Shown piece after piece: positions 1,503 through 22,947 of a stretch of 36,199 nt of DNA (its first letter is position 1; the number at the start of each line of letters is the position of its first letter). The position numbers and the translations under genes were made by a program. The notes beneath the pieces are model-generated. The model was given only the letters and a program-made list of their open reading frames with translations, was not told the origin of the DNA and searched no databases. Source of the DNA: Patescibacteria group bacterium (GTDB taxonomy: Bacteria; Patescibacteriota; Minisyncoccia; 2-02-FULL-40-12; GWA2-44-9); the NCBI GenBank assembly GCA_038078535.1, contig JBBTYS010000024.1, forward strand, positions 1 through 36,199, written 5' to 3'.

Positions 1503-1862
1503 TTATTTTTTATTGGCCACAGTAACACTTACGGCCTTTACAAACAACATAAACCCCAGCGCAATGGCAGACACAACCAGGCCGGTATCGTCTTCCTTCT
1601 TCTTATGCGGAATAATCTCCACCATTGGCTCAAGTATCACCGGATCAATGATGATCGTTTGCCTTGCTGGAAGGCTCTGCTTTTTAGAATAGCCGCTACT
1701 CTTTGTTTGCAACATTGGAACGCTTTGCTTTTTGGAGTAGCCAGATGGAACAAATGACTCAGGTATAAGTGAAGCTTTGGTATCGACTATTTCGGATTGT
1801 TCCTTTTCTTCTTTGCAGCTAGGGCAATCACAACCGCATGTTTTACTTTTATTGTTACACAT
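1503..1862 (-). CDS. Hypothetical membrane-anchored protein, Cys-rich N-terminus
   Basis: 119 aa, ATG start. N-terminal CGCDCPSC, a duplicated SGYSKKQS(V/L)P motif, and a C-terminal hydrophobic helix (GLVVSAIALGFMLFVKAVSV). Confidence 0.55.
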   Translation of the reverse strand: MCNNKSKTCGCDCPSCKEEKEQSEIVDTKASLIPESFVPSGYSKKQSVPMLQTKSSGYSKKQSLPARQTIIIDPVILEPMVEIIPHKKKEDDTGLVVSAIALGFMLFVKAVSVTVANKK

Positions 1863-1866
1863 AATT

Positions 1867-3495
1867 TTAAATGGTTTCGGGTTGAGTGACTACTTTTTTT
1901 ACTGTTGGTATTTCATGCACCACTTTTTTGCTGTTGATGAGATACACGGAGGGATCGTTGCCTCTGTTTTTCTCCATCACAGCATAGTTCTTTGTGTGTG
2001 TGAACTTATCTGGTCGGTTTGTGAAGATAACTACCGGGGCGTTGTAACCGGATGCTGACCCCCCTCTTGTTTTTCCATCCGCATTGCGCTGCATAAGTAT
2101 TACCCAAATGGTGTCTGGATATTCCGTGCGCAGGTCATCAAGCCATTCATTGCTAAATTGCCCCTTCACTTTCGTGGCGCTGTCCACAATTATCATATCA
2201 AAATGGGTGGCAATTTTTTGCAACCCTTCTTTCGATTTTGGAACATCGGGAGATACATACAACTTGGTCACGTTTTCGGGTTTCAGGTTTCGCTTTATGG
2301 ATGCAATGGTATCCTTGCTGTCTAACCCGCCTTGCTCCCAATCCACCAAGGCTACTTTCATGCCCATGTCAATGGCAACATCGGCAATTTGTTTGGCTAA
2401 TTCAGATTTGGAAGAGTGGTAGTCACCTTCAATCACAATTTGCGATCGGAAGCGCTGTTGCTCACCTAAAAACTTACCGATGGCCCCTCCAAAAGTAAAG
2501 GTACCTTCCGGTTTAGCTGGAGCCTGATCGGCTGTCATAAATCCAAATAGCTGTTCCACCTTACTCACTTTAGGCTTTTTTTTTTGATCCCCATTCACTC
2601 CGGCCAGATACTCCACTTTCATCTTAGGCCGTGGATTTTTAATGATGGCCACTACCTTGCTTTTAAAGGTGCTGTCAAGGGTTACTTTCAACTCTGAGGC
2701 TGCATTCTTTTTCGCTGCCTGTATTGCGCCCGAAAGCCTTGCATGAATGTCATTCAATAGAGGCTTACGGTCCGGGGAGCTGCGCAATACTTTAGCCAGG
2801 TCGCGCTGAAACATTTCCAGCGATAGAGCCGACTTGGTTTTACCATCCATGTTGGTGTAACGTTTCATCATCTGCAATTCTTTGCTGAAACGCTTTACGG
2901 TTACAGGAAATTTAACGTCACTTTTTACAACTGCTTTTGGCTTTGCAATCTTGACAGTTTTCTTTACTGCTTTCTTTACTTTTTTGGAGGAAGAAACTCG
3001 TGGCCTTGGTCTTTTACTTTCGCGCTTTGACTTTGGTTTCTTCGCCACTATGATCCGGTAGTTTATAATTGGATATTCAGGTTCACCAGAATTTGTCACT
3101 GCATAAATTTCTCTCTTGCCTTTTCCAAGTGAAATATCAACGTAAACCTTACCCTGTTCACTTTTATAAATTGGCCTATCCCAATTATCTTTTTTTCCGG
3201 TTTCAGTTAGTAAAATTGGCTTCACTTTTTTCTTCTGCACAGGCTTGGACTTCGGCTCAACCTTCATCACTGCCTTTGGCTCGGCTTTTTCTCTGGCCAG
3301 GCTCTCCAGCGACTTCACGTGCAGCTCGTAGGCTTCCCTAATATCAGCATCGGCAAGCATTTCATTCCATAGGTTTGGATCGGTGAAGTTGCTGCTTCCC
3401 TCTTTCACAATGTTGTACGTGTCTTTATTAGCTTCATCAAGTTTTGATAAGCCGACCTTTTCAATCAGGTTCTGGTAAGTGGTTAGGGTTGTCAT
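1867..3495 (-). CDS. Very basic protein with a C-terminal RecA/DnaB/KaiC-like ATPase domain (function unassigned)
   Basis: 542 aa, with a Lys-rich N-terminal two-thirds. The C-terminus has IVIEGDYHSSKSELA (Walker-A-like, second Gly replaced by Ser), FDMIIVDS (Walker B) and VILMQRNADGKTRGGS...APVVIF. Confidence 0.6.
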   Translation of the reverse strand: MTTLTTYQNLIEKVGLSKLDEANKDTYNIVKEGSSNFTDPNLWNEMLADADIREAYELHVKSLESLAREKAEPKAVMKVEPKSKPVQKKKVKPILLTETGKKDNWDRPIYKSEQGKVYVDISLGKGKREIYAVTNSGEPEYPIINYRIIVAKKPKSKRESKRPRPRVSSSKKVKKAVKKTVKIAKPKAVVKSDVKFPVTVKRFSKELQMMKRYTNMDGKTKSALSLEMFQRDLAKVLRSSPDRKPLLNDIHARLSGAIQAAKKNAASELKVTLDSTFKSKVVAIIKNPRPKMKVEYLAGVNGDQKKKPKVSKVEQLFGFMTADQAPAKPEGTFTFGGAIGKFLGEQQRFRSQIVIEGDYHSSKSELAKQIADVAIDMGMKVALVDWEQGGLDSKDTIASIKRNLKPENVTKLYVSPDVPKSKEGLQKIATHFDMIIVDSATKVKGQFSNEWLDDLRTEYPDTIWVILMQRNADGKTRGGSASGYNAPVVIFTNRPDKFTHTKNYAVMEKNRGNDPSVYLINSKKVVHEIPTVKKVVTQPETI

Positions 3496-3496
3496 A

Positions 3497-5263
3497 TTAC
3501 GCTGCTAGTTTGAGTTTAACTTTTACTGCTCTTGCTTTCAATGCCAGGCGTAGCCGTAGCACGTTTGCTTTATTGACCTCACCAGGAGATGGGGCTAGAT
3601 TGGGTTTCACAATTAAAACCCTGTCGTTGATTAATTTCGATTCGGTAAGGCGCTCTTCAATTTCCTTTGCTACTGCTTTAATCACGTTGTCACTTACTTG
3701 CTCCGTGCCCTTATCTGTGCCCACTTCATCTATGATCATATCCAGTTGATAGGCTTGAAGTTCTACACTGGCGTTGTGATTGCGTTGCAATATCTCCACA
3801 ACCTTTTTCAATTTACCGGCCATGAATGCGGCCACCATGTAGTTGCTGGTCTTGTCGAAGCGACCATCGTCCATGAGCTTGAAATTATCATTGGTCTTGG
3901 CAATGATTGCCCCGCCATCAGTGCTAATGCTTTTGCCGTTGGCCAGGCTGGCAATTACTTTCACGGCTTTGCTAATGGGTACTTTGATCATGTTCTCCGA
4001 GCTTACCTCGGGTGGCTCCCAGCCATCTGGCATGAGGCGACCTTTCAACGTCTTACCATCGCTGGTTGTGTAGCTGATCAACCGGCCTTTATTAAAATCG
4101 TCATTGCCATAACTTTGCAATAGGTTGCCCGATACAATGTAGGCCGTGCCACGGTCTTTCGTGGTGGATTTGATGGCTGCTTGCCATTCGTTTTTGAGTT
4201 GATCAAACGTAGGTTGCGATAGGTTTGAACTTACGCCCATGATGGCGTTAATATCTTTTACTTTTGAAAGGTTGATGTCGATACGCTTCTTACCTGAAGC
4301 TATAGCTACTTGCAACTTCATGTTGCTGGGCAAAAATGGTTTATCGTTATTCAAATCAACCTTAACACCAAGGCACACTGCTATGCTCTTTGCGCTACTG
4401 GCATTCTCCATGTCGAGCAGATAAAACACTTTGCGGCCTACGGTGAAAAAGTTGATTATATCCGTCATGGCCTGTTGGCGATTGTTTTGCTTCTCAATCT
4501 CTTTGGCTTTCTTTTCTGCTTTGGCTTGTAATAAAAGCTGCTCGCGTTCCGATTTGAATTGGTTGCGCTCAGCTTCTGTCTTTAAGGTTACGATGGCTTT
4601 TTCTTTGTCAAGGTTTTTTATCTTCAGGGCGTAGTCCTCTTCAATCTCCCGGCCAATACGTTTCAGTGTTTCGGTCGTGCTAAACTCATATCTGTTTACC
4701 AATATGTCGCGCAGCTCCCGGGGGTCTTTTCCTTCCAGGGCTTGCACGTACAGGTTTTCCAGTTCGGTAACACTGTATGGTTTCTTCAGTATGTTCACCT
4801 CGCACTTTTCAATGTAGGTGTTATCGCCAAAGGCACTCTGTCCACCCTTGCCAACTATTTTGATGGATTTGTCGATGGAGGTTGCTTTCAAATCCAACAC
4901 ATCTACTTCCAGATCGTATTCGTCAATCTGTTTTAGGTATTCTATTTCCTCTTTGTAAAGTTTAAGGACAGTTGTGTAAAACTTTTCCTGCATGGCAGTT
5001 GGCAATACAGCCACGCGGCCAGAGACACGGTGCGCGGCATCTTCCATTACCACAGCGTTTCCGCTATCTGCGGATGAATCTTTTAGTTTCAAAGGATCGT
5101 CTAGCAGGTCGTTGATCTCAGGGTTATCTTTTAAATAACTTGTCACTACGCGATCACCGTATTTGTTCAGGAAGTCATCTACCGATAACACGGCCTCACT
5201 TTGCTTTTGGTTTGAAGTGGTGTTGGCATCGAGGCTCTTTAGTTTCTTTTGCAACATCATCAT
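3497..5263 (-). CDS. Large hypothetical protein (coiled-coil centre); possibly a polyvalent-protein-type domain
   Basis: 588 aa from the ATG at 5263; the ATG run overlaps the upstream stop as TGATGATGATG. No catalytic motif was recognised. The central segment is KAEKKAKEIEKQNNRQQ. Confidence 0.6.
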   Translation of the reverse strand: MMMLQKKLKSLDANTTSNQKQSEAVLSVDDFLNKYGDRVVTSYLKDNPEINDLLDDPLKLKDSSADSGNAVVMEDAAHRVSGRVAVLPTAMQEKFYTTVLKLYKEEIEYLKQIDEYDLEVDVLDLKATSIDKSIKIVGKGGQSAFGDNTYIEKCEVNILKKPYSVTELENLYVQALEGKDPRELRDILVNRYEFSTTETLKRIGREIEEDYALKIKNLDKEKAIVTLKTEAERNQFKSEREQLLLQAKAEKKAKEIEKQNNRQQAMTDIINFFTVGRKVFYLLDMENASSAKSIAVCLGVKVDLNNDKPFLPSNMKLQVAIASGKKRIDINLSKVKDINAIMGVSSNLSQPTFDQLKNEWQAAIKSTTKDRGTAYIVSGNLLQSYGNDDFNKGRLISYTTSDGKTLKGRLMPDGWEPPEVSSENMIKVPISKAVKVIASLANGKSISTDGGAIIAKTNDNFKLMDDGRFDKTSNYMVAAFMAGKLKKVVEILQRNHNASVELQAYQLDMIIDEVGTDKGTEQVSDNVIKAVAKEIEERLTESKLINDRVLIVKPNLAPSPGEVNKANVLRLRLALKARAVKVKLKLAA

Positions 5264-6123
5264 CAAACGCTTTTCGGCAGGGATGGCAGAGAAAACATAA
5301 TCGTAGATAGGCTTGTAGATTTGCCCGGTGCGTGGCCATCAATTAAAATGGTATCTACCACGTTGTAATGTTTGTGCAGGTAGTTGAAAAAAATCCGGTT
5401 CTTTCCGGCTGTTACGCGGCCTTGCTCGTCCCAGGTGGTGTGCCCTCCAATGATGATGGCTGCGCTGCCATCGTTGGCCATGCAATCCAACGCACGGATG
5501 GCCATTACGTGATCGAGGTCGCGAATACCATAGCCGTCTATTTCCTCTGGATCTGAGAGCCTTCCAAATGGCGGGTTGGTGATCACTGCCGCAAAACTTT
5601 CATCGCTATACACGGCCCTGGTTGCATCCTTGGCCGTGACTTTAGCAAAGCCCTGCACGGATAAATTCTCGCGCCTTACAGGGTCTATTTCATTTACATA
5701 AAAGTCTTCCGGGTTGGCGGCAATAGTAAGCAATCCATTGCCTGCACTTGGCTCTAAATACTTGCCCGGCTTATCCACACCGCAGAAAATTCCCATCAAA
5801 TAACCGATGGGTGCGGGGGTGCTGTACTGTTGCAACAAAACCGACTGACTAGTACGGTGACTTAAGTTCACCTGCCCTTTGTATAGCTCAACAATACTGG
5901 CAAATTTCTCTGCGATTGTCTTACCTGGTTCATGCGCCAGCTTGCGGGCTTGCTGTACGATAGCCAGTTCGGTTAGTTCTTTTACAAGGTTGCGATCTGT
6001 GATGCCGAAGGACTTAGCTAATTTTTCAAGGGTGAGTTTGTTCGGCCTCACCCTTCCCTCTCCCACGGAGAGGGAAGAATGCAGTAAGGATTCAACGGCC
6101 TTAACATATCCTTCCTTGTTCAT
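5263..6123 (-). CDS. N6-adenine DNA methyltransferase (gamma-class order)
   Basis: 286 aa. The AdoMet motif YLEPSAGNGLL comes before the catalytic motif VITNPPFG. No restriction partner is visible nearby. Confidence 0.8.
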   Translation of the reverse strand: MNKEGYVKAVESLLHSSLSVGEGRVRPNKLTLEKLAKSFGITDRNLVKELTELAIVQQARKLAHEPGKTIAEKFASIVELYKGQVNLSHRTSQSVLLQQYSTPAPIGYLMGIFCGVDKPGKYLEPSAGNGLLTIAANPEDFYVNEIDPVRRENLSVQGFAKVTAKDATRAVYSDESFAAVITNPPFGRLSDPEEIDGYGIRDLDHVMAIRALDCMANDGSAAIIIGGHTTWDEQGRVTAGKNRIFFNYLHKHYNVVDTILIDGHAPGKSTSLSTIMFSLPSLPKSV

Positions 6124-6464
6124 TTCTTAATCACTTTATCAATTTGAACCAGTTCGAGATTGCGAGCATTACATAGCTTAATAAATTCTTTCGCCTGGTC
6201 GAGCTTCCAGATGGCCGCTCCTATTAATCCTTTCTTTGGGCGATACTCCTGCTCTTCTGCGTTGCGTTCGCCTTCATAGTGGATATACACATCTTCGCGT
6301 TCCTTCACCAAGAAGTAGCTAAGAAAAGTATCTGACAACCGTTGCCAGAAATTGCGCGTTGACTTTAAGCGGATGAAATAAGCATCGTGACCTAGCTCAT
6401 GAACGGTTTTCTTTCGTGGCCGGTGAGCGTACATAGCCCTGAGATTGTCGGTATGTTTTCCCAT
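6120..6464 (-). CDS. Small protein with a zincin-type HExxH motif (putative metallopeptidase-like domain)
   Basis: 114 aa from the ATG at 6464 (an in-frame GTG at 6467 is possible). Motif TVHELGHDAY. The stop overlaps the methylase start (ATGA). Confidence 0.45.
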   Translation of the reverse strand: MGKHTDNLRAMYAHRPRKKTVHELGHDAYFIRLKSTRNFWQRLSDTFLSYFLVKEREDVYIHYEGERNAEEQEYRPKKGLIGAAIWKLDQAKEFIKLCNARNLELVQIDKVIKK

Positions 6465-7081
6465 CACCGTTTCTTTATTTGGATCAGTTCTGAACCTGTT
6501 ATTTTCACCAAATGGTTAGGCGTGGTGAATTCATTGAAGTATTTCTTGGCTCCGATGCGTAAGCCCATAATTTTTTTACGTTGCCAATACACTGCACCGT
6601 AAAGTGGCACTGTGGCCGTACCCATGATAACGGTGGAGTCTCTCAACACAAGCCCTTGCAAGGTGTTGTACTTATCGCGATAGCTCCATGCTTTGGCGGC
6701 CACACTGTCTTTATGAAAAACAACCAGTGTATCTTTAAGAGGCAGCGAAGTGAATACCGATAATTTAGCCTGTACCTGCACGGCCTGTTCTAAATTTTTA
6801 AGGTTCTTTTTTACGCCTTCAATTTCTGTGAGGAAACTTAAATGACTGGTAGTGGCCAGCTTGCGGGCATCGTTAAGGTTGAGTGTAAGAATTTCACTTT
6901 TAGCAACTTCATGCCCCCACTGATTCTTATAAATAACAGAAGTTAAGCTATCCTTTTTTGCAATTTGTAAAACCTGTGAGTGGCGTTCTCTCCAGCTTCT
7001 AAGGCTTTTATATTGCAACCCCACAGTGCCAATCAAGACAACGATCACAACTGAAAGGATGATGTAGATTCTTAGTTTCAT
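6464..7081 (-). CDS. N-terminally membrane-anchored protein (spanin-like position in the lysis cluster)
   Basis: 205 aa. N-terminal helix IYIILSVVIVVLIGTVGL followed by a soluble domain. It lies directly downstream of the holin-like and GH108 genes. Confidence 0.4.
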   Translation of the reverse strand: MKLRIYIILSVVIVVLIGTVGLQYKSLRSWRERHSQVLQIAKKDSLTSVIYKNQWGHEVAKSEILTLNLNDARKLATTSHLSFLTEIEGVKKNLKNLEQAVQVQAKLSVFTSLPLKDTLVVFHKDSVAAKAWSYRDKYNTLQGLVLRDSTVIMGTATVPLYGAVYWQRKKIMGLRIGAKKYFNEFTTPNHLVKITGSELIQIKKR

Positions 7082-7085
7082 TTTT

Positions 7086-7304
7086 TTATTTCGATATGAT
7101 TATTAAACCCCAGCCGATGAGCGTTACAAGAACAGCCACAGCGGCAATTATTGCGGAGCGCCATTTTTCTAAACTCGATACCCTGCCATTGGTTGCGGTG
7201 GTTTGGAGAAGAATAGCGTCTAGCTTTTCATCCTGCGCCTTTTGTCGTTCATCTATACGTACCAATAGTTCCATATCGATTTCTGCATTTACCTTCTTTG
7301 CCAT
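7086..7304 (-). CDS. Small membrane protein, holin-like candidate
   Basis: 72 aa with a charged N-terminal helix and a single C-terminal TM helix (AIIAAVAVLVTLIGWGLIII). TAATG overlap with the GH108 gene. Confidence 0.4.
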   Translation of the reverse strand: MAKKVNAEIDMELLVRIDERQKAQDEKLDAILLQTTATNGRVSSLEKWRSAIIAAVAVLVTLIGWGLIIISK

Positions 7305-8020
7305 TAAGTCGTTGTTTTTAAGTCGGCTTCTTTTGGTTTTTTATCGCCCCTGGTAGTGAGGTACAGCAGCAGCAGTGCCGCACCTATGCCCAGGCCAATG
7401 CCAATCGTTCCTTTGTTTTCGGTTACTACTTGCACGGTCTTTTCTTTGGCGGCTGTTACAAGCTCTTTGGCGGCTTCGTACACGCCACGAAATTTTTCAA
7501 GTCGTGCCATCCATCCCGCCCTGAACGCTTCCTGCGATGGGTTTTGCGCAATCAGTTTTTCAAGAAAATATTTTCGCTCCTCCAGCAAGGCATTGTGCAA
7601 CTTCATTGGATTGGCTTTGTTGATGTTGGCCAGTGTGTCGGCTCCCAGCTTGCCATCATCTGAAATTTTCAAAACCCGTTGTATTCCTTTAATAGCGTTG
7701 GCCCCGCTATGCACTTGAAAATCATACAGTAAGTTGGCCACTTCCTGATTATCAATCTTACCAATGTTGGTGGTGTTCCACCTTGCCAGATAAAATTTTT
7801 CTACTGCATATTGTATGGCCGGAAACTTGGTGTTGTTTTTTATGGCTACGCCTTTCAATTTCTTTTTTTCAAAATCAATCAATGTCCAGCCTTCCCAATC
7901 TTTATTGAAGTTGCGGGCAATGCCTGCATAGGTTTCACCCCCTTTGTCGGCAGGGGCATTGGCGTATCCGCCTTCATTAGGCAGGATGTAATTTTTATAC
8001 GCTGTTTCGAAGTTGGCCAT
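7304..8020 (-). CDS. GH108-family lysozyme with a PG_binding_3-like region and a C-terminal TM helix
   Basis: 238 aa. The N-terminus ILPNEGGYANAPADKGGETYAGI matches the GH108 EGGY..D.GG.T..GI signature. The C-terminus has GIGLGIGAALLLLYL. Confidence 0.8.
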   Translation of the reverse strand: MANFETAYKNYILPNEGGYANAPADKGGETYAGIARNFNKDWEGWTLIDFEKKKLKGVAIKNNTKFPAIQYAVEKFYLARWNTTNIGKIDNQEVANLLYDFQVHSGANAIKGIQRVLKISDDGKLGADTLANINKANPMKLHNALLEERKYFLEKLIAQNPSQEAFRAGWMARLEKFRGVYEAAKELVTAAKEKTVQVVTENKGTIGIGLGIGAALLLLYLTTRGDKKPKEADLKTTT

Positions 8021-8027: not shown

Positions 8028-8684
8028 TTATTTGAATGCCAGTTTTTTAAGTTGTCCGGCAGGGGTAAGGTCTTCTATTTTAGAATCTCCTTTGATGTAG
8101 TTTTTATACACGTAGGCTACTACCAGCAAGCCTGTTACACCAAGGCCAACGGGCACGATGTACTTTGCTAGGCCGGCCACATTGCTCACGGTGTCTACTC
8201 CGCCTTTCACGGCACCCGCTGCGCTCTCACCAACTTTACCAGCGGTGTCCAGCACATTTACCAAAGAAGTAGAAGCATTGTCGGCAATCTTAGATACTTT
8301 TTCCACACCTGCATTGGCTGTGCGGTGGGTAAGGTTAAAAATGGAAAAAAGCCCAACCGTATTGAAGTATCCGAAGAACTCGCTACCAAATCCACATCTG
8401 GTTAATAGCGTACTTGCATTTCTGTCCCAATGGCCTTTGAATACTTCATTGGCTTTGATAGTAGCTGCTTCTGGTGCAAGTTTTACTTTGCTTGCAAACC
8501 TGCCTTCGGTAAACCACTTTACTAAGCCCTTGTGAAACACCAACCAATCGGCACACGTCCAGGTCACCGCTGTTTTGGTAGTAAGCGAAGTATTAGGCTG
8601 TGCAATCTTGTTAGTTTTCAAATCGAAAATAACAGGAGGTTGCGTGGGTTCGCCTAAAGTCCGTTTTGATAGTTCCAGTATCAT
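8028..8684 (-). CDS. Hypothetical protein with a C-terminal TM helix
   Basis: 218 aa, ATG start, ATGA coupling to the upstream gene. C-terminal helix IVPVGLGVTGLLVVAYV. Confidence 0.55.
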   Translation of the reverse strand: MILELSKRTLGEPTQPPVIFDLKTNKIAQPNTSLTTKTAVTWTCADWLVFHKGLVKWFTEGRFASKVKLAPEAATIKANEVFKGHWDRNASTLLTRCGFGSEFFGYFNTVGLFSIFNLTHRTANAGVEKVSKIADNASTSLVNVLDTAGKVGESAAGAVKGGVDTVSNVAGLAKYIVPVGLGVTGLLVVAYVYKNYIKGDSKIEDLTPAGQLKKLAFK

Positions 8685-8926
8685 AATGATTTTATGGCTT
8701 TCGCCTTTTTAAATTCTTTTACCTGCTCAGGCAAGTCAATCACTTGCGTGGAACGTTTCCACACGCCACGGGCAAAGCGGTATGACCCATTGCCATTTAC
8801 TGAAACATCGGAAAACCCGAGTTCTATCAACTTAATGGCCACGTCATTGTTTGACCCTAATAGCTGAAGGCCACTTAATTTGAAGGTGCCTTCGTATTGC
8901 TGCCCTTGTATAAGTTCTGCTTTCAT
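8681..8926 (-). CDS. Hypothetical protein
   Basis: 81 aa, with ATGA overlaps on both sides. Confidence 0.5.
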   Translation of the reverse strand: MKAELIQGQQYEGTFKLSGLQLLGSNNDVAIKLIELGFSDVSVNGNGSYRFARGVWKRSTQVIDLPEQVKEFKKAKAIKSL

Positions 8927-9814: not shown

Positions 9815-10168
9815 TTATCGGCTGTGTGTTATCTGAATAATATCTCCGCTTGTGCCCTTTAAGCGGATGTTGTGCGTGATATTTATAAAACCAATTGGCA
9901 CTTTGTCGCCTGTTATCCACGTGCCGGAATTGCTATCAATTGTGCGTGTAGCTATCTGCACTGTTGTTGCTGCACTTATTATAGTTACATAGGCTGTGCG
10001 CTCTTCGTGCTGGCGGTATGGGTAAGCATCACCAAACTGTACCTCCAGCTCGCTGGAGCTTGCCAGGGTTATCTTAGCTCCGTTGTAGATTACCGTTGGC
10101 ACCGGTGGAGTGAACGACATCAGTGCCGTCAGGCACACAAATAAGAGAAGTACTTTAATGGTTTTCAT
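9815..10168 (-). CDS. Small protein with an N-terminal signal-peptide-like sequence
   Basis: 117 aa. N-terminus MKTIKVLLLFVCLTALMSF, then beta-rich sequence. Confidence 0.55.
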   Translation of the reverse strand: MKTIKVLLLFVCLTALMSFTPPVPTVIYNGAKITLASSSELEVQFGDAYPYRQHEERTAYVTIISAATTVQIATRTIDSNSGTWITGDKVPIGFINITHNIRLKGTSGDIIQITHSR

Positions 10169-16171: not shown

Positions 16172-16546
16172 TTACTTTGGTGGTTCTATTCCGTCAGCGA
16201 CATTGGTTTTGTAATCGATTATGTTATTGATTCTTTTGGAGGCCAGGCCAAACAACCGACTGGCAATGTCGCTGCCGGTGTACCCCACAAACCCAAATCC
16301 TATTTTCAGATAATCAATCACATTTTTATTGATGCCCACAATTTCATCCATAAAAAAAAGAAAGAGGACAATCGTGATCAACGATGAAGTGACCGACAGC
16401 CAGTCTTCCTTGAAGTAGCCTAGCGCGCTGAAGGGAAGGTTTGCGACTTTAGCTTTCTGTTGAATGGAACGAAGTTTAAGGGTAGTTTGCAACACCATGC
16501 CCAGGAAGGCAACCGCAAAACATTGGAGGTACAAGATTAAGCTCAT
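16172..16546 (-). CDS. Multi-pass membrane protein
   Basis: 124 aa with about three hydrophobic helices (LILYLQCFAVAFLGMVL, SSLITIVLFLFFM, IGFGFVGY). Confidence 0.55.
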   Translation of the reverse strand: MSLILYLQCFAVAFLGMVLQTTLKLRSIQQKAKVANLPFSALGYFKEDWLSVTSSLITIVLFLFFMDEIVGINKNVIDYLKIGFGFVGYTGSDIASRLFGLASKRINNIIDYKTNVADGIEPPK

Positions 16547-16564: not shown

Positions 16565-17137
16565 TTAAACAAAAATTGATTTTATCTCCATGTACCAATC
16601 GGCACCGTCCTTGGTACACTCGGCTTTGTAGGTGCCTGCTTCGAAGCAAGTCCATACTTTAGTTACGTTGTCCCACTGCGGGTCGGTCATTTTAAAATTG
16701 GCCGGCCACGTTTGGCTGTGTGCGCCCGTGGTGGTGAAGAATATGTCTATCTTAAGGCTGGTGGCATCGTTGGTGACTTGCCAGGTCTTAGCGGCAATAG
16801 CGGCCGATGGTTTGAACACCCTCTGTTTGCTGTTGGCCATATCCAACACAATAGGGTTGGCGGCTGCGTTGTATTGCACCAGGCTCACTTCGGCATCCAG
16901 CCCTTCGGCATCGCTGATTTTTACAAAACTTGCACCGATCCATTTGTAGTAGGCGTTAGATCCAGGGGTTTCCACTGTGGGGTCGCCAAGGCCAACACCA
17001 GGAAAATCTTTGGAGGCATCGATCACCAACACACCTTGCCCCTTGTTGGTATTGTTCCAATCTGCGGCAATGGTATTGCGTGTAGGATAGTCTTCCACTA
17101 CGCGGTCGACCAATAATCTTTGTATGCCCCCCGGCAT
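16565..17137 (-). CDS. Hypothetical beta-rich protein
   Basis: 190 aa, ATG start, no motif recognised. Confidence 0.5.
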   Translation of the reverse strand: MPGGIQRLLVDRVVEDYPTRNTIAADWNNTNKGQGVLVIDASKDFPGVGLGDPTVETPGSNAYYKWIGASFVKISDAEGLDAEVSLVQYNAAANPIVLDMANSKQRVFKPSAAIAAKTWQVTNDATSLKIDIFFTTTGAHSQTWPANFKMTDPQWDNVTKVWTCFEAGTYKAECTKDGADWYMEIKSIFV

Positions 17138-17141
17138 GGCT

Positions 17142-17420
17142 TTAGATTGTTTTTAAGATGAGTGCTATGCTTCCGGCTGCGCCAAATTTGATGAATATAT
17201 CACCGTCCCAGGTTTCGCATGGCCGGTAGAGCGGCCATGTAGACAGTTCGTTAGGGTTGAGTGGAATATCGGGTTCGCCATCTTTCGAAAACCCAAAATA
17301 TATTTTCTCGGCACCAACGTTTTGAATGGTGAAATCGATACAATCATTTACGGTTGTATCCTTGATTTGATTTACCCCATCCAACCGTGTTACGTCTGGC
17401 TTTCGCTTTGTATCTGCCAT
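17142..17420 (-). CDS. Hypothetical protein
   Basis: 92 aa, ATG start, tightly packed with its neighbours. Confidence 0.5.
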   Translation of the reverse strand: MADTKRKPDVTRLDGVNQIKDTTVNDCIDFTIQNVGAEKIYFGFSKDGEPDIPLNPNELSTWPLYRPCETWDGDIFIKFGAAGSIALILKTI

Positions 17421-17422: not shown

Positions 17423-17872
17423 TCAGATTTTTTTGCGCAACCTGAAGATGATCTGGTACGATAACTCAGCCGCAAGATTGTTGGCAAACTCTGTTTTAAT
17501 ATCGAGTTTCTCGCCCCTCACCACCTGGATAAAAATATCCTTGTAACGGTCGTTGATGGGTGTATCACTACCGGCCTGCCAATCTTTCTTATGCGTAATG
17601 GTATGGTAAGTGTTGTTCTTATCTTCAATACCAATGCTATAGAATGCTATACCACCCGTGCCAAGTTCAATCACCTGCACACCATCGGCAAACTCAAAGT
17701 TGGTGTCTAACTCCTGGCTGTCGGTGTAGCGGCCTGCTACTGTTAAATTTGCTTTGGTTACGGTAATGGTCTGATACTTTGTTTTGTACCGCACCTCCTT
17801 GCCAAACTGATCCTTTAAGATGGTAACTAATGCGCTGAGATGTTCAATAATTTTTTTCAAGAAGCTTTCCAT
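17423..17872 (-). CDS. Hypothetical beta-rich protein
   Basis: 149 aa, ATG start. Confidence 0.5.
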   Translation of the reverse strand: MESFLKKIIEHLSALVTILKDQFGKEVRYKTKYQTITVTKANLTVAGRYTDSQELDTNFEFADGVQVIELGTGGIAFYSIGIEDKNNTYHTITHKKDWQAGSDTPINDRYKDIFIQVVRGEKLDIKTEFANNLAAELSYQIIFRLRKKI

Positions 17873-17882: not shown

Positions 17883-18311
17883 TTACTGTGCCTGGTTTGT
17901 CCAAATAGTTCCTTTTATGGTGGCTGCCATTGTGCCTGCCCCCGTCCATGTAATTCTATAATACCTCACCGGACTTCCAGTGAACTGCCATATACCGCCT
18001 TGAGTGGCAACATCGGTAGCAGTAAATGTGGTGGACGATATAGAGGCATAGTCTACCCCGTCATTGCTTCCATGAATGGCAATAGTGCCGGCCACTAGAC
18101 CCGATATTTTAGTGGCTATAAATTGAACGGATGATACATTTCCGCTTTCGAGGGATGCATCAACCTGAACAAATCCTGTTGCTGTATTGGTTACAGTATC
18201 TGACACCAAAAGAGTTGATCCTAAGGCGTTGTAAAAGTTTCTTGCCTTTTGAGCTTGCCCGCTAAATGCAATGCATGTGGCAAGCATTATTGAAATGAAT
18301 ATTTTTTTCAT
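17883..18311 (-). CDS. Small protein with a signal-peptide-like N-terminus
   Basis: 142 aa. N-terminus MKKIFISIMLATCIAFSGQAQ. The start lies 30 nt downstream of palindrome copy 1. Confidence 0.55.
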   Translation of the reverse strand: MKKIFISIMLATCIAFSGQAQKARNFYNALGSTLLVSDTVTNTATGFVQVDASLESGNVSSVQFIATKISGLVAGTIAIHGSNDGVDYASISSTTFTATDVATQGGIWQFTGSPVRYYRITWTGAGTMAATIKGTIWTNQAQ

Positions 18312-18340
18312 GATATTTTATCTTTTAATGATGGAAAAAT

Positions 18341-18364
18341 GGAGACGCAAAATTTTGCGTCTCC
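18341..18364. repeat. Palindromic element, copy 1 (perfect 24-bp palindrome; terminator-like on the minus strand)
   Basis: ggagacgcaaaattttgcgtctcc. On the minus strand it is followed by ATTTTTCC. It lies between the 204-aa gene stop (18384) and the next start (18311). Confidence 0.8.
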
Positions 18365-18383
18365 CTGCATTTTTTTTCTCGGT

Positions 18384-18998
18384 TTATCTGGCCCCTCTCA
18401 ACTTCGTGCGGGTGCCCTTTAAGTGCAACTCCACAAAGTGATGGTTTACCACAGCTTCCAACACTTTGTCGATAGGAAACTTAATGGAGAACTGCATGGG
18501 CACGTTTTGCTTCAGCAATCGTGGATAGGTAAGCTGATAACCGTTCTGGCCTTCAAACTCATCGGTGTTGGCAGCTTGCTTTAACAACTGCTTGATGGGC
18601 AAGGTGAGGATAGGCGTATCGTTTTGCTTGATGACCAGGTTGGCGTGAAGCAACTGGATAGGACAGGCGGAGATAAGAGACGAGTAGGACACATCAACAG
18701 CAACGGAGTTGTTGGCAACTGCCGAACTTCCATAACCAAACTGAACAGCATCAATGATGAAGTTCACAAACTTTGGCAAGGTGCGCTTGTCGATGTTGGT
18801 AATACCTACGCTCTCGTCAAGCGCAGCCGTTAATAAGTCGATCTCGCCACCTCCCACGATTTTTGTCCGCACATAAAGGGGCTCGTCTTCAAGCACAATT
18901 TTCCTGTCTTTGATAGCACCGCGTGTTTCGCTATCCAATTCTGCAGCCCCGTAATTTTCGAGGTAAGCCAGTTCTCTCGATTTCAATGGTTTTCTCAT
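18384..18998 (-). CDS. Hypothetical protein; candidate abundant structural (coat) protein, by context only
   Basis: 204 aa, beta-rich. It is the only late gene followed by a strong hairpin plus T-run. Confidence 0.45.
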   Translation of the reverse strand: MRKPLKSRELAYLENYGAAELDSETRGAIKDRKIVLEDEPLYVRTKIVGGGEIDLLTAALDESVGITNIDKRTLPKFVNFIIDAVQFGYGSSAVANNSVAVDVSYSSLISACPIQLLHANLVIKQNDTPILTLPIKQLLKQAANTDEFEGQNGYQLTYPRLLKQNVPMQFSIKFPIDKVLEAVVNHHFVELHLKGTRTKLRGAR

Positions 18999-19053: not shown

Positions 19054-19524
19054 TTACATGACGCTCTCTAATCCCAAGAGTTTGTTTTCCAAATTCTCGC
19101 CAAGGCCGGTGAGTTCGTCCAATGCGTCATTGGTTTCCATCCCATCTTCGTTGCCTTCACCAAGAAGTTTTTCATTCAAGTTCTCTACATCGCCAAGCCA
19201 TCCCATTGCAGGGGCTGCACCTGTGGCAAGCTGAGGTATGAATTTGTTGATGGTACCTTTGAAGCCGGTGATGGCAGGTACTCCGTTGTCGGCAGCAATA
19301 CTGTTCATTACTGCAATAGTGCCTAACGAGGCCGATACGATAGAGGCAGATTTGAATACCTTACCTCCAACCATGATGCCGATAAGACCGGCACCGAGCA
19401 ATACCCAACCTGAATATTTGGGCATTTTACGGGCAACGTGCAGACTTACGACTGCCACGCCTGTACCAAGCGCTAAGTCAACTGCACCGTCCTGTAAATT
19501 TTTTGTGATCTCTTTTACGTCCAT
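19054..19524 (-). CDS. Membrane protein (Gly/Ala-rich helices)
   Basis: 156 aa. Hydrophobic segments LALGTGVAVVSLHV, GWVLLGAGLIGIMVGG and ASIVSASLGTIAVM. Confidence 0.55.
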   Translation of the reverse strand: MDVKEITKNLQDGAVDLALGTGVAVVSLHVARKMPKYSGWVLLGAGLIGIMVGGKVFKSASIVSASLGTIAVMNSIAADNGVPAITGFKGTINKFIPQLATGAAPAMGWLGDVENLNEKLLGEGNEDGMETNDALDELTGLGENLENKLLGLESVM

Positions 19525-19546: not shown

Positions 19547-22369
19547 TTAAATAGTTATAGCCATCACCTTTTTGGTGCGTTGACTCGATTTGGATTTGGA
19601 TTTTTTACCATTAGCCTTTACTCCGGCTAGGGCAGGAGCAGCCACTTGTGCAGGTGCCGCTTGCGCTATCTGTGCTGGCGCTGCTTTGCTACCGCGAAGC
19701 GCAAAGGCCAACAGACCTACGCCAACAGCCACACTTGCAGCAATGGCGATGTACTTCACCGTGTTGCTCTTTTGCTCGTTTAGCATTTTGGTTTCCACCA
19801 CTTCCGCTTCCTGTATGGGCAGTGTTACAATGCGGCCTTCTTCGTTTTGCACAGGCACAATGCCTGGCTTAGTGAATTGCTCTACCGCTGATGGCGAGGC
19901 ATTGTTTTGAACCAGGGTTTCGGCAACCTGCATTGCTGTGGGCGCCACTTCCTCAATGGCTGCTGATATTTCTTTGGCCAGTATGGGGTTCTCTTGCGCG
20001 ATAGACTTTGAGGCTATCTCGGTGGCAACCGGATTGTTTTTCATGGCCGATACCAACGGTGCCGCTTGTGGGTTGGCCTTTAATAGTGCAGCCGCTATTG
20101 TGGGCGACTTAGCGTTGATTATCTGAGAAGCGATGGATGATAATTTGGGATTACTGGTAAGCACTTTGGCCAGCGTGGCAACAGCGGGGTTTGATTGCGC
20201 CATCGCGTTTGTTACACTTGATGTAAGTTTTGATACCAATGGGTTTGAACCGGCAACTTTTGGTATAAGTGATTGCAGTATGCTTGTTGGAGCAAATGAA
20301 TTTATGATATTAGATATGGGTAATGGTGTTACATTTGGGTCGCCCTCATCGTCAATGTCGTCAGTGCTTTCGGCTGTTACTGATGCGCTTTTTATTTCGG
20401 CATCACTTGCATGAGGTGAACTTGCACGGCCTTTGAACATGGTAGTGAAGTTGATAGGCTTCAACAGCGCGGCAATAGCTGCCAACACGCCCGCTGCGGC
20501 TGTGGTTGAAACAGGATCGCCTAATGAAGCTTTTGTGATCGCTATCTTTTTGCCGGCTTCCACGGCATCGCGCAGTTGCTGTGTGGTGCCTCCTTTACTT
20601 ACCACCAGCTTCTCTACTACTTTTGCACGGTCCAGTAGTTTTTTATATTCTACAGTGTTATAGGTAGATGCTTCGCTCACTGGCTTATAGGCCAGGCTTA
20701 ATTTTGTGGCAAGGCCATTTTGGTTTTTGCGGATGGCCTGAAGCAGCTCTTCTAACTCCGATGCATCCTGCGTGCGTATCAATGCACTGTACTCAATCGG
20801 TTTCAACTGAGCGTCTACCAGTTGCAGCAACGGCAGCGCAGGGCTTATTTGTTTTTTGATAGCCGCGATTTGTTTGCTCTGTGATGTGGTCTTGGCTTTT
20901 ACTGCCTGCGCTTTCTTTGAAGCGTTGCCACGATCACCTAACCCATCGAACCCATTGAACCCACTGATGAGGTTGTGTTTTTTTGTACCATGTGCCCAGC
21001 CTGCTTTAACAGCGGCATCAAATTTTTCAACCTTGCCGCCAATGGCTTTGTGTAATTTGCGGGTCTTCTCCAGTGTGACCTGGTTCTTTCTCCACTCCAC
21101 AATGTCCAATCCTTTTTCCTGCGCCTGGGCTTCCGTCCAATAACCATATCCAAGCTTTTCGGCCATGCGAAAAAGGTTGAGCTTCATGGCCAGCAACAGC
21201 CCGTTGCGTATGGCTATGGTAGCGGGGTTGTAGCGCACTATCACTTTGGCCACTACTTTGGCGGCCTGCACTATGGCTGCACCAGCGGCCTTTACTCCGC
21301 TGCCTACCTTTGAGGCCACTGACTTAATACCTTTGGCTATTTTTTTAAAGAAGCCTTTACCAAGGCCAAAGCCACTAAGTCCGTTTAGCTCTTCGCGCTC
21401 TTCCAGGCAGGCCAGTTCGTTAAGGACTTTTGAACGGGTGTTGCCATCGTCAAACACGGCAATGAGCGAATCGAGCCTTTGGGCGAAAACAGCAGGGTTA
21501 TAAATGCCTGCCGTAAGTGCAGGGTTGATGGCAAGTATTGCACGGGTGTTGACCAGGTGCTGCTTAAGGCCAAGCAAAAAAGCAGTTTGCACCTGCCTGG
21601 GGCTTTCACCATTAAATCCGTTGAGGCCGTTAAATTCGTTTCCAAATATGCCAAGCAATTCTTCTGCTGAAGAAGGGGCTGGGTATGCCAGTAACGAAAA
21701 AGCCTGTGGCGTAATGCCGCCAGTGATCGTTGACTGATCAAGTCCATTGAGATATTGTATTTTCATAACCTTATCAAATTTTTTGAGGGGTTCTACTTCG
21801 TGATCGAACTTATCCACCACGCAATCCATGACGTAGTATTTATTGCGGGCTACTTCTTTGGCGGTAAAATCAGTGATGGGTACACCTTTCTTTGGCACCA
21901 CCACATACACATGCTGCCAGCCTGTGCTTTCGTTATATGCCGCCTTTCTAAGGGCATGGCTAATTTTTTGGTGGTGTAAATAGGAAGAGAGCAACACGCT
22001 CATACAATCGCAGTCGATACCTCTTTTGCGATCCAGCCAACTGCGGCCTGGCCTGCGTATCTGCTCAATGCCGTTGGCATCTTTTGCATATTGAAAGTGA
22101 TTGTAGACGTGGTTCCAATCATTGCGCAGTGTTTCTTCCAGGGTGCGGCCTTGCAGTGTTGGCGCTACCTTTTCGGTATCTTCCAAGGTGTTGAGCACGA
22201 TCTTAGCCATGTGGTTAAGCGTATCGTAGGTGTCGCTTGCCTCGCCTCCTATGATGGGGTTTGTGCCCAATAGAAATTCTTTGTTGTACAGGCTGTCGTA
22301 TTCGGTGCCAGGGCGGATGTTACGCCTGCCCGATGCCACAAGTCCAAGTCCGATCAATGCTCTTCTCAT
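19547..22369 (-). CDS. Large protein with an N-terminal transglutaminase/papain-like Cys-His-Asp core, an Ala-rich helical body and a C-terminal TM helix
   Basis: 940 aa. Candidate triad: GIDCDCMSVLLSSYL (Cys), GWQHVYVVV (His), YYVMDCV (Asp). The centre is long and Ala/Lys-rich. The C-terminus has YIAIAASVAVGVGLLAFAL followed by a basic tail. Confidence 0.6.
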   Translation of the reverse strand: MRRALIGLGLVASGRRNIRPGTEYDSLYNKEFLLGTNPIIGGEASDTYDTLNHMAKIVLNTLEDTEKVAPTLQGRTLEETLRNDWNHVYNHFQYAKDANGIEQIRRPGRSWLDRKRGIDCDCMSVLLSSYLHHQKISHALRKAAYNESTGWQHVYVVVPKKGVPITDFTAKEVARNKYYVMDCVVDKFDHEVEPLKKFDKVMKIQYLNGLDQSTITGGITPQAFSLLAYPAPSSAEELLGIFGNEFNGLNGFNGESPRQVQTAFLLGLKQHLVNTRAILAINPALTAGIYNPAVFAQRLDSLIAVFDDGNTRSKVLNELACLEEREELNGLSGFGLGKGFFKKIAKGIKSVASKVGSGVKAAGAAIVQAAKVVAKVIVRYNPATIAIRNGLLLAMKLNLFRMAEKLGYGYWTEAQAQEKGLDIVEWRKNQVTLEKTRKLHKAIGGKVEKFDAAVKAGWAHGTKKHNLISGFNGFDGLGDRGNASKKAQAVKAKTTSQSKQIAAIKKQISPALPLLQLVDAQLKPIEYSALIRTQDASELEELLQAIRKNQNGLATKLSLAYKPVSEASTYNTVEYKKLLDRAKVVEKLVVSKGGTTQQLRDAVEAGKKIAITKASLGDPVSTTAAAGVLAAIAALLKPINFTTMFKGRASSPHASDAEIKSASVTAESTDDIDDEGDPNVTPLPISNIINSFAPTSILQSLIPKVAGSNPLVSKLTSSVTNAMAQSNPAVATLAKVLTSNPKLSSIASQIINAKSPTIAAALLKANPQAAPLVSAMKNNPVATEIASKSIAQENPILAKEISAAIEEVAPTAMQVAETLVQNNASPSAVEQFTKPGIVPVQNEEGRIVTLPIQEAEVVETKMLNEQKSNTVKYIAIAASVAVGVGLLAFALRGSKAAPAQIAQAAPAQVAAPALAGVKANGKKSKSKSSQRTKKVMAITI

Positions 22370-22947
22370 TTTTTTATGAAAATGTTTTGGTCTCTGACAC
22401 CGATTGACTTAAGCCACATGGGCACGTAAAAACCTGGGCAGTCTTTTTTGGCGAACTGGTTATGCCCAGCGCCTTTTATTTCTGGATGATAAGTGATGAT
22501 TTGATTTACCCATGCTTCCATTGTGGCACGCTGCGCGGGTGTGCGTGTATCTTTCGAGGCGGTGCCATCTTTGGTAAGGCCACCGGCATACACCAGGTGA
22601 CGGCCAATTGAATTGGTGCCAGTTGCACCGTTGCTGATCTCGCGTGGGTCTACATTGTCGTCTTCATCGTAAGGGATAAGATTGACGAGCGATCCATCTA
22701 ACAGGATCATATCAGAATATCCAACTTTGCTCCAACCGCGACCGCTTAGTTTTTTTACATCTACTCCGCCTATCTTTTCATCGGGGAGATCCAGAATACT
22801 TTCGTAGGGGGTTGACTTGTAGATTACGCTGCCATCGGCATTGACAAGCGGCCCCATGTGCCACTGGCGAATTTCATCAGGGGTAACGGGGCGACCTTCC
22901 GGTGTGGCGGTGCAATGGATGATGAATAATTGCAACTTTTGTGACAT
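22366..22947 (-). CDS. N-acetylmuramoyl-L-alanine amidase (Amidase_2 / T7-lysozyme-like)
   Basis: 193 aa from the ATG at 22947 (the track start at 22959 is TTG). Motifs IIHCTATPEG and GWSKVGYSDMILLDGS. ATGA overlap with the 940-aa gene. Confidence 0.75.
   Translation of the reverse strand: MSQKLQLFIIHCTATPEGRPVTPDEIRQWHMGPLVNADGSVIYKSTPYESILDLPDEKIGGVDVKKLSGRGWSKVGYSDMILLDGSLVNLIPYDEDDNVDPREISNGATGTNSIGRHLVYAGGLTKDGTASKDTRTPAQRATMEAWVNQIITYHPEIKGAGHNQFAKKDCPGFYVPMWLKSIGVRDQNIFIKK

Follow-up and report, generated by a model that had tools for sequence, protein, structure and literature searches.

Collections hold few lipid-containing phages that lack a tail, and the diversity of such phages is believed to exceed current estimates. 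Among the described systems closest to the element considered here is SSIP-1, a membrane-containing icosahedral phage that, according to reviews, carries an internal membrane under its shell; its genome is 43.8 kb long and its host, Salisaeta, belongs to the Rhodothermota, a sister phylum within the Bacteroidota/Chlorobiota group. SSIP-1 has been described as having hardly any sequence similarity to GenBank entries, and its virion protein gp40 is a predicted packaging ATPase (PMC4124505). In SPV1 (Portogloboviridae) an internal membrane is enclosed by a shell made of two single jelly-roll proteins; this virus has no packaging ATPase (PMC8812541) and is autonomous, although no replication genes are recognisable in it. 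For the Simuloviridae plasmid and provirus forms are mentioned in PMC12642351. Here we analyse a 36,199-nucleotide stretch of metagenomic DNA (contig JBBTYS010000024.1, positions 1 to 36,199, hereafter the window), which is essentially one integrated element with ten flanking bases per side. The original prediction, made from the letters of this DNA, had left three options for the element, i.e. a divergent tailed phage, a non-tailed internal-membrane virus with jelly-roll coat proteins, or a satellite or defective element. Structural models and homology to SSIP-1 favour the second of these, whilst the tailed option is very unlikely and the satellite option fits poorly. We therefore propose, with a probability of roughly 0.68, that the element represents the integrated state of a temperate, lipid-containing icosahedral virus without a tail, which has a Bacteroidota host, is related to SSIP-1 and is built with small jelly-roll coat proteins.

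The candidate major capsid protein is a 204-aa protein encoded at 18384-18998 on the minus strand. Its AlphaFold2 model, computed from an alignment of 25 homologues of at least 52% identity (from Cytophagia-like metagenome-assembled genomes (MAGs) and metagenomic contigs of ~34-41 kb), predicts N-terminal helices followed by a beta sandwich of the single jelly-roll type, with a mean predicted local distance difference test score (pLDDT) of 80.9 and a predicted template-modelling score (pTM) of 0.77. The best match of this model in the PDB, and the only one with E <0.001, was the SPV1 capsid chain 6oj0_A (E 6.6e-4, probability 1.0, template-modelling (TM) scores 0.48/0.54); the remaining PDB matches were to jelly-roll proteins, including TNF-like proteins, several viral capsids and, at rank 50, VP17 of P23-77. 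In BFVD the top matches were I1ZBH9 (211 aa) and I1ZBI0 (256 aa), with E values of 1.8e-4 and 2.8e-4 and TM-scores of 0.39-0.46, followed by SPV1 VP4, and the SSIP-1 record lists proteins of just these lengths, gp46 with 211 aa and gp47 with 256 aa, as products of neighbouring structural genes. Two further BFVD matches, A0A141HS21 and A0A141HS22, were considered as HCIV-1 capsid proteins and ruled out, as their lengths do not fit. Searches of all PDB sequences with the 204-aa family, both single-sequence and profile-based, found nothing.

A 149-aa protein (17423-17872, minus strand), which may be a second capsid protein or a penton protein, is modelled by AlphaFold2 as an N-terminal helix and an eight-stranded single jelly roll (mean pLDDT 83.7, pTM 0.68), and Foldseek matched the model to generic jelly-roll proteins, many viral capsids among them, with TM-scores of up to 0.58. 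A homologue directly follows the homologue of the 204-aa protein in every relative examined, the most distant included; the window is the exception, in that a gene for a 142-aa exported accessory protein (17883-18311, minus strand) lies between the two, this protein having a signal peptide and occurring in one relative only, elsewhere in the locus. Comparison of the 204-aa and 149-aa families by hhalign gave no detectable paralogy. Both modelled proteins are thus predicted to be jelly rolls and not HK97 folds, the modelling covering these two conserved small late proteins, with conserved proteins of 293, 218 and 190 aa lying outside it. A terminator-like hairpin with a 10-bp stem (18341-18364, minus strand), the strongest minus-strand terminator-like site between 5000 and 24000, lies directly 3' of the 204-aa gene, a placement that is typical of a highly expressed capsid gene, albeit circumstantial. 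Within the wider jelly-roll family, 26 of 148 sampled members (18%) have a hydrophobic N-terminal helix before the jelly roll, several in the form of a two-helix hairpin, as would be expected if the shell protein rests on lipid.

One sequence connection to SSIP-1 is made by a 542-aa protein (1867-3495, minus strand), a candidate genome-packaging ATPase with a conserved N-terminal domain, a lysine-rich basic linker and a C-terminal AAA_25/RecA-like ATPase domain. The profile of this ATPase domain matched SSIP-1 gp40 in hhalign with a probability of 90.6% (E 1.3e-6) over 172 columns that span Walker A, Walker B and downstream motifs, as against 0.9% for the same profile and the HerA-type packaging ATPase of HCIV-1, used as a control; with a smaller alignment the probability for gp40 was 61.9%. 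We therefore regard the 542-aa protein as the counterpart of the SSIP-1 virion ATPase. The match of the ATPase with gp40 was also the only one found when ten core families were compared by hhalign with 25 SSIP-1 proteins, and gp40 itself is classed by Pfam as AAA_25/KaiC-like, not as FtsK/HerA-type. The 542-aa protein, which is conserved in four of the relatives (loci L021, L023, L024 and L025) and has weak similarity to RecA and AAA_24, carries the P-loop variant GDYHSSKS followed by MIIVDS, where syntenic homologues have the canonical GDQGAGKT. The HSSKS variant is kept across a large subgroup of homologues, is also found fused to ArdC-N and MPTase domains, and is probably functional, since it is conserved across so many sequences. 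This protein had been described beforehand as a degenerate RecA-like ATPase: the RecA-like character and the non-canonical Walker A stand, but the degeneracy is not noise, given the homology to gp40 and the canonical P-loop of the syntenic homologues.

Further links run through a 940-aa protein (19547-22369, minus strand), a homologue of which is present in every relative examined, and which consists of a transglutaminase-like Cys-His-Asp N-terminal domain, a long Ala/Lys-rich helical region and a C-terminal membrane anchor. It matched the SSIP-1 virion protein gp34 by phmmer (E 4e-7 in a set of 447 ORFs, i.e. open reading frames) over the segment DCDxMS...HVYVV, and the match of the family profile reached E 4e-18; gp34 in turn has a Pfam Transglut_core match and a C-terminal membrane anchor, with the same domain order as the 940-aa protein. 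The profile of the GH108 lysin family, described below, matched ORF31 of SSIP-1 with E 2.4e-9, and the methylase part of a polyvalent protein gave a weak match (E 2.4e-4) to the 2319-aa virion protein gp43; in the SSIP-1 locus (L014) gp40 occupies 24775-25737 and gp43 26863-33822. Single-sequence searches with the 542-, 940- and 589-aa proteins returned nothing significant.

Recognisable tailed-phage genes are missing, as the original prediction had already stated for terminase, portal, HK97 capsid, tail tube or sheath and replication genes. Profile searches bear this out: scans with Pfam and PHROGs of all 40 strand-consistent (minus-strand) ORFs, and with NCBIfam of the ten core late proteins, gave no match to terminase, portal, HK97 capsid, tail tube/sheath, tape-measure or replication families, so that the finding named in advance as decisive against a non-tailed element, i.e. 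a terminase, a portal and an HK97 capsid among these ORFs, was not made. Baseplate and other tail families were likewise without a match in the Pfam and PHROGs scans of the 40 ORFs, in which the sole matches were to the GH108 lysozyme, an amidase, three DNA methylases, a reverse transcriptase of a diversity-generating retroelement (DGR), DUF1643, DUF6549 and helix-turn-helix (HTH) proteins. A six-frame motif scan found no canonical Walker A in any ORF, and no profile matched a terminase large subunit, the only ATPase being the AAA_25/RecA-like one, which has no nuclease domain. The ORFs of at least 400 aa (542, 589, 726, 411, 732, 940 and 542 aa) are those that had been listed originally.

The element belongs to a large family. 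A search of 1.84 billion representative proteins with the jelly-roll profile returned 457 clusters (at 50% identity) with E <=0.001, of which 194 had E <=1e-10, with proteins of 180-315 aa. In all neighbourhoods examined, around close and distant members alike, the gene order was constant: a peptidoglycan hydrolase, a transglutaminase-like protein of 420-990 aa, a membrane protein (mostly of ~150-175 aa), the jelly-roll protein, the second small protein, a few small proteins with variable fibre genes, a coiled-coil protein of ~290 aa, a GH108 lysin with a holin, a giant polyvalent protein, the ATPase, and an integrase or resolvase. The polyvalent proteins that occupy the same position in relatives carry a methylase, an SNF2 helicase, or ArdC-N and MPTase domains. 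The relatives' loci gave no Pfam match to terminase, portal, capsid or FtsK-type ATPase, and in those of the loci that were scanned for Walker A the canonical motif was found only in flanking or inserted genes; their replication proteins are of the BT4734 type or plasmid Rep3. Some members are integrated elements, about 20-40 kb in size, others reside on two circular replicons of 48 kb, and one carrier is the cultured type strain Algivirga pacifica. One relative (L015) is an element of only ~20 kb, and in another (L023), where the largest such protein is the transglutaminase homologue with 420 aa, the module takes up ~15 kb; neither has an unassigned protein big enough for a terminase and a portal, and the unassigned proteins of the compact relatives include none of portal size. 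The early region of L003, a close relative, holds a gene of the Acb2/Tad1-hairpin family (1254-1565), whose members are phage anti-defence sponges, and a gene resembling 3'-phosphoadenosine-5'-phosphosulphate (PAPS) reductase (395-1231).

The boundaries of the element are well defined. A direct repeat of 45 bp, identical at 45 of 45 positions, lies at 11-55 and 36145-36189, and these attachment (att) repeats enclose an element of 36.1 kb. The left site (attL, 1-55, plus strand) combines the first copy of the 45-bp core with the 3' part of a tRNA gene at 1-52 (Rfam, model positions 21-71, cut by the start of the window), and the right site (attR, 36145-36189) is the second core copy, with host genes beyond it on the source contig. 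A tyrosine integrase of the Bacteroidota type is encoded at 168-1304 on the plus strand (Pfam Arm-DNA-bind_5, Phage_int_SAM_5 and Phage_integrase) and has the same position in the relative L021; together with the tRNA part and the perfect repeat pair it confirms the earlier statement that both attachment repeats fall inside the window. On the 105.5-kb source contig, the genes beyond attR include two proteins with Por_Secre_tail, the sorting domain of type IX secretion, a D-Ala-D-Ala ligase and similar genes. On account of the two Por_Secre_tail proteins we take the host to be a member of the Bacteroidota, although the MAG is labelled Patescibacteria; the source contig (L027, GCA_964357085.1, CAYHKG010000014.1), from a MAG labelled 'Patescibacteria group bacterium', is probably mis-binned Bacteroidota DNA. 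In one groundwater assembly from Hainich (0.1-um fraction, judging from the contig names) the contig ends coincide exactly with both ends of the window.

With few exceptions, the genes lie on the minus strand, in an early/middle operon running from ~34181 down to 23252 and a late operon running from 22959 down to 1503; the late region thus extends slightly beyond position 22947, at which it had been taken to end. Beside attR the plus strand carries three genes (34508-36084) that look like lysogen-expressed ones: the first (about 34508-34978) resembles an HTH repressor gene, and the other two (35010-35489 and 35539-36084) encode small proteins of secreted or lipoprotein-like type. A tandem pair of 71-nt repeats with 87-nt spacing and 87% identity (30717-30874) and a 22-nt repeat present three times near the start of the early operon (33013-33094) could be iterons or operators. 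The palindrome TTGAGACGCAAnATTTTGCGTCT occurs four times (18340-18366, 29339-29365, 29502-29528 and 31455-31481), two of the copies being identical; one copy, the terminator-like hairpin noted above, comes directly behind the candidate capsid gene, the other three belong to the early region, and the four could be terminators or a common regulatory site.

The late operon opens with an N-acetylmuramoyl-L-alanine amidase (22366-22959, minus strand; PHROG amidase, E 2e-32, and Pfam Amidase_2), which overlaps the start of the 940-aa gene and whose equivalent position in relatives is in some cases taken by a GH108 or SLT enzyme instead. A 156-aa Gly/Ala-rich protein (19054-19524, minus strand), recognised as a membrane protein by its hydrophobicity, has its gene immediately before that of the jelly-roll protein, here and in relatives both close and distant. 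Two small late proteins of 190 and 92 aa (16565-17420, minus strand) are conserved family-wide and have no family match in any library; the former corresponds to the N-terminal part of a ~333-aa protein of relatives and is possibly a vertex protein. A conserved core at 8028-9804 (minus strand) encodes a tail-anchored 218-aa protein (8028-8684), an 81-aa protein (8681-8926) and a 293-aa protein with a central coiled coil (8923-9804). These three are found in nearly all relatives and gave only weak coiled-coil matches, one of them to a PHROG head-scaffolding family (E 0.003), the 293-aa protein being a possible scaffold or assembly factor. The lysis cassette that follows (6464-8020, minus strand) comprises a GH108 lysozyme with a PG_binding_3 domain and a C-terminal anchor (7304-8020), a 72-aa holin-like protein (7086-7304) and a DUF6549 protein (6464-7081), which has an N-terminal anchor and is spanin-like by position; these assignments are based on Pfam, PHROGs and hydrophobicity, and the order is conserved in relatives. 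The last gene of the operon encodes a 119-aa Cys-rich protein (1503-1862, minus strand) with a C-terminal anchor (hydrophobic residues 95-113), a homologue of which follows the ATPase in L021.

Hydrophobicity analysis agrees with the membrane segments given in the original prediction, i.e. C-terminal tails on the products of 7304-8020 and 8028-8684 and on the 940-aa protein, and membrane proteins at 19054-19524 and 16172-16546, and adds two anchors to them, at the C-terminus of the 1503-1862 product and on the 72-aa holin-like ORF (7086-7304). Eight late proteins in all have membrane anchors, and SSIP-1 likewise has many tail-anchored late proteins. Several features thus point to an association with membrane, namely these eight anchored proteins and the hydrophobic N-termini in 26 of 148 family members. 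A phage way of life, for its part, fits with the lysis cassette, the DGR, the three methylases, the Acb2/Tad1-type gene of L003 and the hairpin after the 204-aa gene.

This copy of the element is not intact throughout. A polyvalent-protein gene at 3497-6123 (minus strand) survives as two ORFs, one for the methylase N-terminus (5263-6123, 286 aa) and one for the C-terminal part (3497-5266, 589 aa). When the intact 1768-aa homologue of L021, which has AAA_34, ResIII and Helicase_C_4 domains, was used in tblastn, its residues 1-260 and 1140-1768 matched in different frames; relative to L021, the gene is shorter by ~880 codons, among them those for the SNF2-type helicase, and the frame has shifted near 5329-5365. 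Each of the two ORFs also matches gp3, a 5391-aa protein of Bacteroides phage BS-TP4. The earlier statement that the gene set is complete accordingly holds in extent and fails as regards integrity, since the 286- and 589-aa ORFs are the ends of a single gene. The rest of the conserved core is intact, and the polyvalent protein seems to serve as an accessory against host defences, not as something the structure requires. Nevertheless, a partly defective state is possible because one gene has decayed. The early region also holds a complete DGR (24950-27697, minus strand), with a reverse transcriptase at 25243-26193 (PHROG, E 4.6e-117), a probable Avd at 24950-25297, an Rfam RT-17 RNA at 26198-26294 and a template repeat near 26313-26398. 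Each of three small paralogous genes (26419-26817, 26877-27290 and 27293-27697) carries a variable repeat at its 3' end, so that the DGR targets small early-region proteins and not fibres. All three variable repeats differ from the template almost only at coding-strand adenines, and this, together with the 45/45 identity of the att repeats, suggests recent activity of the element.

The state of the polyvalent gene, minus ~880 codons and its frame, bears directly on the possibility that the element is a satellite or a defective remnant dependent on a helper for replication, packaging or both, which would also account for the missing recognisable replication protein and for the non-canonical P-loop of the ATPase. 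We consider this unlikely, however, as the element, in contrast to known satellites, retains the complete late module of the family, with ~20 genes that include a lysis cassette and the candidates for capsid proteins, and as the HSSKS P-loop is conserved across many homologues. The adenine-biased DGR differences and identical att repeats suggest that the element was active recently, SPV1 is autonomous even though it too has no recognisable replication genes, and particles might still form after an anti-defence protein has been lost.

A different arrangement of the virion is raised by the fibres. The variable block at 9815-16168 (minus strand) encodes five proteins, of 117, 726, 108, 411 and 732 aa, all of which begin with a signal peptide of the Sec type; the two largest resemble fibres and contain internal repeats, the internal repeats D3, D8 and D16 fall in the block, and the 411-aa protein matched a fibre-repeat PHROG. 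Overall, six late proteins carry Sec signal peptides, i.e. the 732-, 411- and 726-aa fibre-like proteins and three small ones. The block is poorly conserved between relatives, several of which likewise have signal peptides at this place, the fibres of L002, L003, L007 and L009 among them. A 124-aa polytopic membrane protein with two or more hydrophobic segments (16172-16546, minus strand) co-occurs with the signal-peptide fibres, and such a small polytopic protein precedes the exported fibres in the window and in L002, L007 and L009, whilst L005 and L012 have fibres without signal peptides and no small polytopic membrane protein. The export of the fibres may be read as an external-membrane arrangement, as a periplasmic maturation step or as a sign that the fibres are not virion parts. 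Under the first of these the virus or virus-like element would bud through or be wrapped in the cytoplasmic membrane; the jelly-roll proteins would then form a matrix or inner shell, and the exported fibres would be on the outside of the particle. The co-occurrence of three large fibre-like and three small exported late proteins with the polytopic membrane protein speaks for such a virus, and the export topology would suit display on the outer face of a cell-derived membrane; the arrangement is nonetheless improbable, given that L005 and L012 show export not to be a family-wide need, that the homologous SSIP-1 has its membrane inside an icosahedral shell, and that the lysis cassette is conserved.

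The plasmid-borne members of the family raise the further question of whether the module makes a virion at all. In Persicobacter sp. JZB09 it is carried by three replicons whose records are unannotated, two circular ones of 47.6 and 48.8 kb and one of 632 kb (L023, CP012856.1; L024, CP012854.1; L025, CP012861.1), and the 47.6-kb replicon also encodes a Rep3 initiator, an RHS toxin and a PKD protein secreted by the type IX secretion system (T9SS). We rejected the notion that the 47.6-kb plasmid is an excised form of the copy on the 632-kb replicon, as the common stretch is only ~14 kb at 94% identity. The presence of the module on a Rep3-type circular plasmid with RHS-toxin and T9SS cargo genes would suit a plasmid or island system that builds a membrane-associated structure or vesicle, perhaps for DNA transfer, and that shares a few domains with SSIP-1. 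Iyer et al. are said to have described ArdC-N/MPTase polyvalent proteins in 2017 as typical of conjugative elements, which would count in the same direction. Sequence databases of viruses also gave little: tblastn with the concatenated late proteins and 12 diverse jelly-roll members found no jelly-roll homologue in 50,697 GenBank phage records, the only match being between the polyvalent protein and BS-TP4; IMG/VR scans with three jelly-roll lineages and the 542-aa ATPase protein, by a method that reaches fairly close relatives only, found no relative; and literature searches turned up no description of such elements. The absence of a relative from these phage records and from IMG/VR is what a non-virion module would lead one to expect. 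Such a module is quite unlikely all the same, because three to four proteins are homologous to SSIP-1 (gp34, gp40, ORF31 and, weakly, gp43) and folds match those of capsid proteins, because the conserved holin-endolysin cassette implies release by lysis, and because conjugation genes are absent; plasmid and provirus forms are, moreover, mentioned for the Simuloviridae (PMC12642351).

A highly divergent tailed phage (Caudoviricetes) with hallmark genes too diverged to recognise, for which the phage fibre repeats in the fibre-like proteins, the homology of the polyvalent protein to that of the tailed-type phage BS-TP4 (where a portal is annotated beside it) and the weak scaffold-like coiled-coil match of the 293-aa protein could be cited, is very unlikely, because no terminase, portal or HK97 capsid was found with Pfam and PHROGs in any ORF or with NCBIfam in the ten core late proteins, no ORF has a canonical P-loop, the two modelled conserved small proteins are predicted jelly rolls instead of HK97 folds, every ORF of at least 400 aa is accounted for (signal-peptide fibres, transglutaminase protein, methylase, polyvalent remnant and gp40-like ATPase) and, as the strongest argument against a hidden gene set, compact relatives hold the whole module in ~15 kb with nothing of terminase or portal size, the largest unassigned protein on the 47.6-kb Persicobacter replicon having 385 aa.

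For a temperate, lipid-containing icosahedral virus, the genes suggest the following course. The tyrosine integrase would insert the genome at the 3' end of a tRNA gene, and upon induction the one long late operon (22959 down to 1503) would be expressed. Tail-anchored and polytopic membrane proteins would then enter the cytoplasmic membrane, and on that lipid the 204-aa jelly-roll protein would build an icosahedral shell by way of its N-terminal helices, with the 149-aa protein serving as a second capsid or vertex protein. DNA would be loaded by the gp40-type AAA_25/RecA-like ATPase with its basic linker. The amidase and the anchored 940-aa transglutaminase-like protein may be borne by the virion and open the cell wall at entry, whilst the polyvalent methylase/helicase protein, truncated here, would normally be co-delivered against host defences; the GH108 lysin and the holin-like and DUF6549 proteins would release the progeny.

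Several points weigh against this proposal. The assignment of the capsid proteins depends on predicted folds with moderate TM-scores (0.39-0.58), and jelly rolls also occur in proteins other than capsids, decoration and fibre domains of tailed phages being among the weaker matches. That I1ZBH9 and I1ZBI0 are gp46 and gp47 of SSIP-1 we infer from their lengths and consecutive accessions and not from a name, and hhalign revealed no similarity of the jelly-roll family profiles (of 21 and 148 sequences) to gp46 or gp47. The ATPase belongs to the AAA_25/RecA/Sak4 type, and its role may be in DNA processing rather than in packaging, as in other settings this domain occurs fused to ArdC-N/MPTase polyvalent proteins; the packaging role of SSIP-1 gp40 is itself predicted. 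Among the ORFs of the window no replication gene was recognised with Pfam or PHROGs, and the polyvalent-protein gene is deleted in this copy. Sec-exported fibres are hard to reconcile with cytoplasmic assembly around an internal membrane. Finally, for every member of the family, this one included, the icosahedral, lipid-bearing virion is deduced from genes.

If the proposal is correct, a family of hundreds of clusters has been overlooked, in the form of tRNA-integrated prophages and ~48-kb circular replicons in Cytophagia and other Bacteroidota. SSIP-1 would thereby gain relatives, and the family would bear on the origin of single jelly-roll capsids; because the ATPase is not of the FtsK/HerA kind, it would also touch on the question of whether packaging ATPases have been recruited repeatedly. 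With cultured carriers available (Algivirga pacifica and Persicobacter sp. JZB09), the prediction is directly testable.

Compared with known systems, the element differs from phage satellites such as phage-inducible chromosomal islands (PICI) and P4-like elements in having its own conserved late module of ~20 genes and a lysis cassette. With the polyvalent proteins of phages and conjugative elements, e.g. BS-TP4 gp3, it shares the homologous modules in ORFs 5263-6123 and 3497-5266, but the gene is here internally deleted and split, and is an accessory rather than a defining feature. Prokaryotic viruses of the Bamfordvirae (Tectiviridae, Corticoviridae, Autolykiviridae and the FLiP group) are unlike it, there being no profile match to them and the late proteins that were modelled being predicted single jelly rolls of 120-200 residues. 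The Helvetiavirae (Sphaerolipoviridae, Simuloviridae and Matsushitaviridae, with SH1, HCIV-1, SNJ1 and P23-77) are closer in plan: adjacent genes for small single jelly-roll proteins (predicted ones in the element) follow a small membrane-protein gene (VP12-VP7-VP4 in HCIV-1), the architecture includes an internal membrane, as is proposed for the element, and provirus and plasmid lifestyles both occur, with VP17 of P23-77 as a weak structural match to the 204-aa model (rank 50). Their packaging ATPase, however, is of the FtsK/HerA type (A32-like), and no such ORF is present here, the profile probability of 0.9% leaving the P-loop as the only relation. SPV1 provides the best solved-structure match of the 204-aa model, with a TM-score of only 0.48-0.54, but has an archaeal host, a 20-kb genome and a non-lytic life, where the window element has a bacterial host and a gp40-like ATPase. 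The resemblance is to the VP4 fold only, and the set that marks the Portogloboviridae, with a VP4/VP10-type single jelly-roll shell, a VP1 nucleoprotein core, no packaging ATPase and an archaeal host, does not fit the element.

SSIP-1 remains the nearest relative. It differs in that the jelly-roll proteins lack sequence similarity to each other even by profile, in gene order, and in that the integrase, DGR and exported fibres of the element are not annotated in its record; it is also a phage of a halophile and a single isolate. The likenesses comprise a host from the Bacteroidota/Chlorobiota group and a similar genome size, the gp34-type anchored transglutaminase-like protein, the gp40 AAA_25-type ATPase, the GH108 lysin and the weak methylase match in gp43, the many tail-anchored late proteins, and the fit of the best predicted-structure matches of the 204-aa model to gp46/gp47. 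The view that a membrane-type virus would be unusual at this size and in this host group is thus contradicted by SSIP-1 itself, with its 43.8 kb and its Salisaeta host. As a tentative further step, which we put at somewhat less than an even chance, the element and SSIP-1 may together represent a new high-rank lineage of bacterial dsDNA viruses, marked by single jelly-roll capsid proteins without sequence relationship to known ones, an internal membrane, a virion ATPase of the RecA/AAA_25 instead of the FtsK/HerA type and, in some members, Sec-routed fibres, and widespread among Bacteroidota as prophages and plasmids that detection pipelines have missed. As proposed, the element has the architecture and three to four of the genes in common with SSIP-1, whereas its candidate capsid proteins are without detectable sequence relatives among known viruses and belong to a large, hitherto undescribed family.

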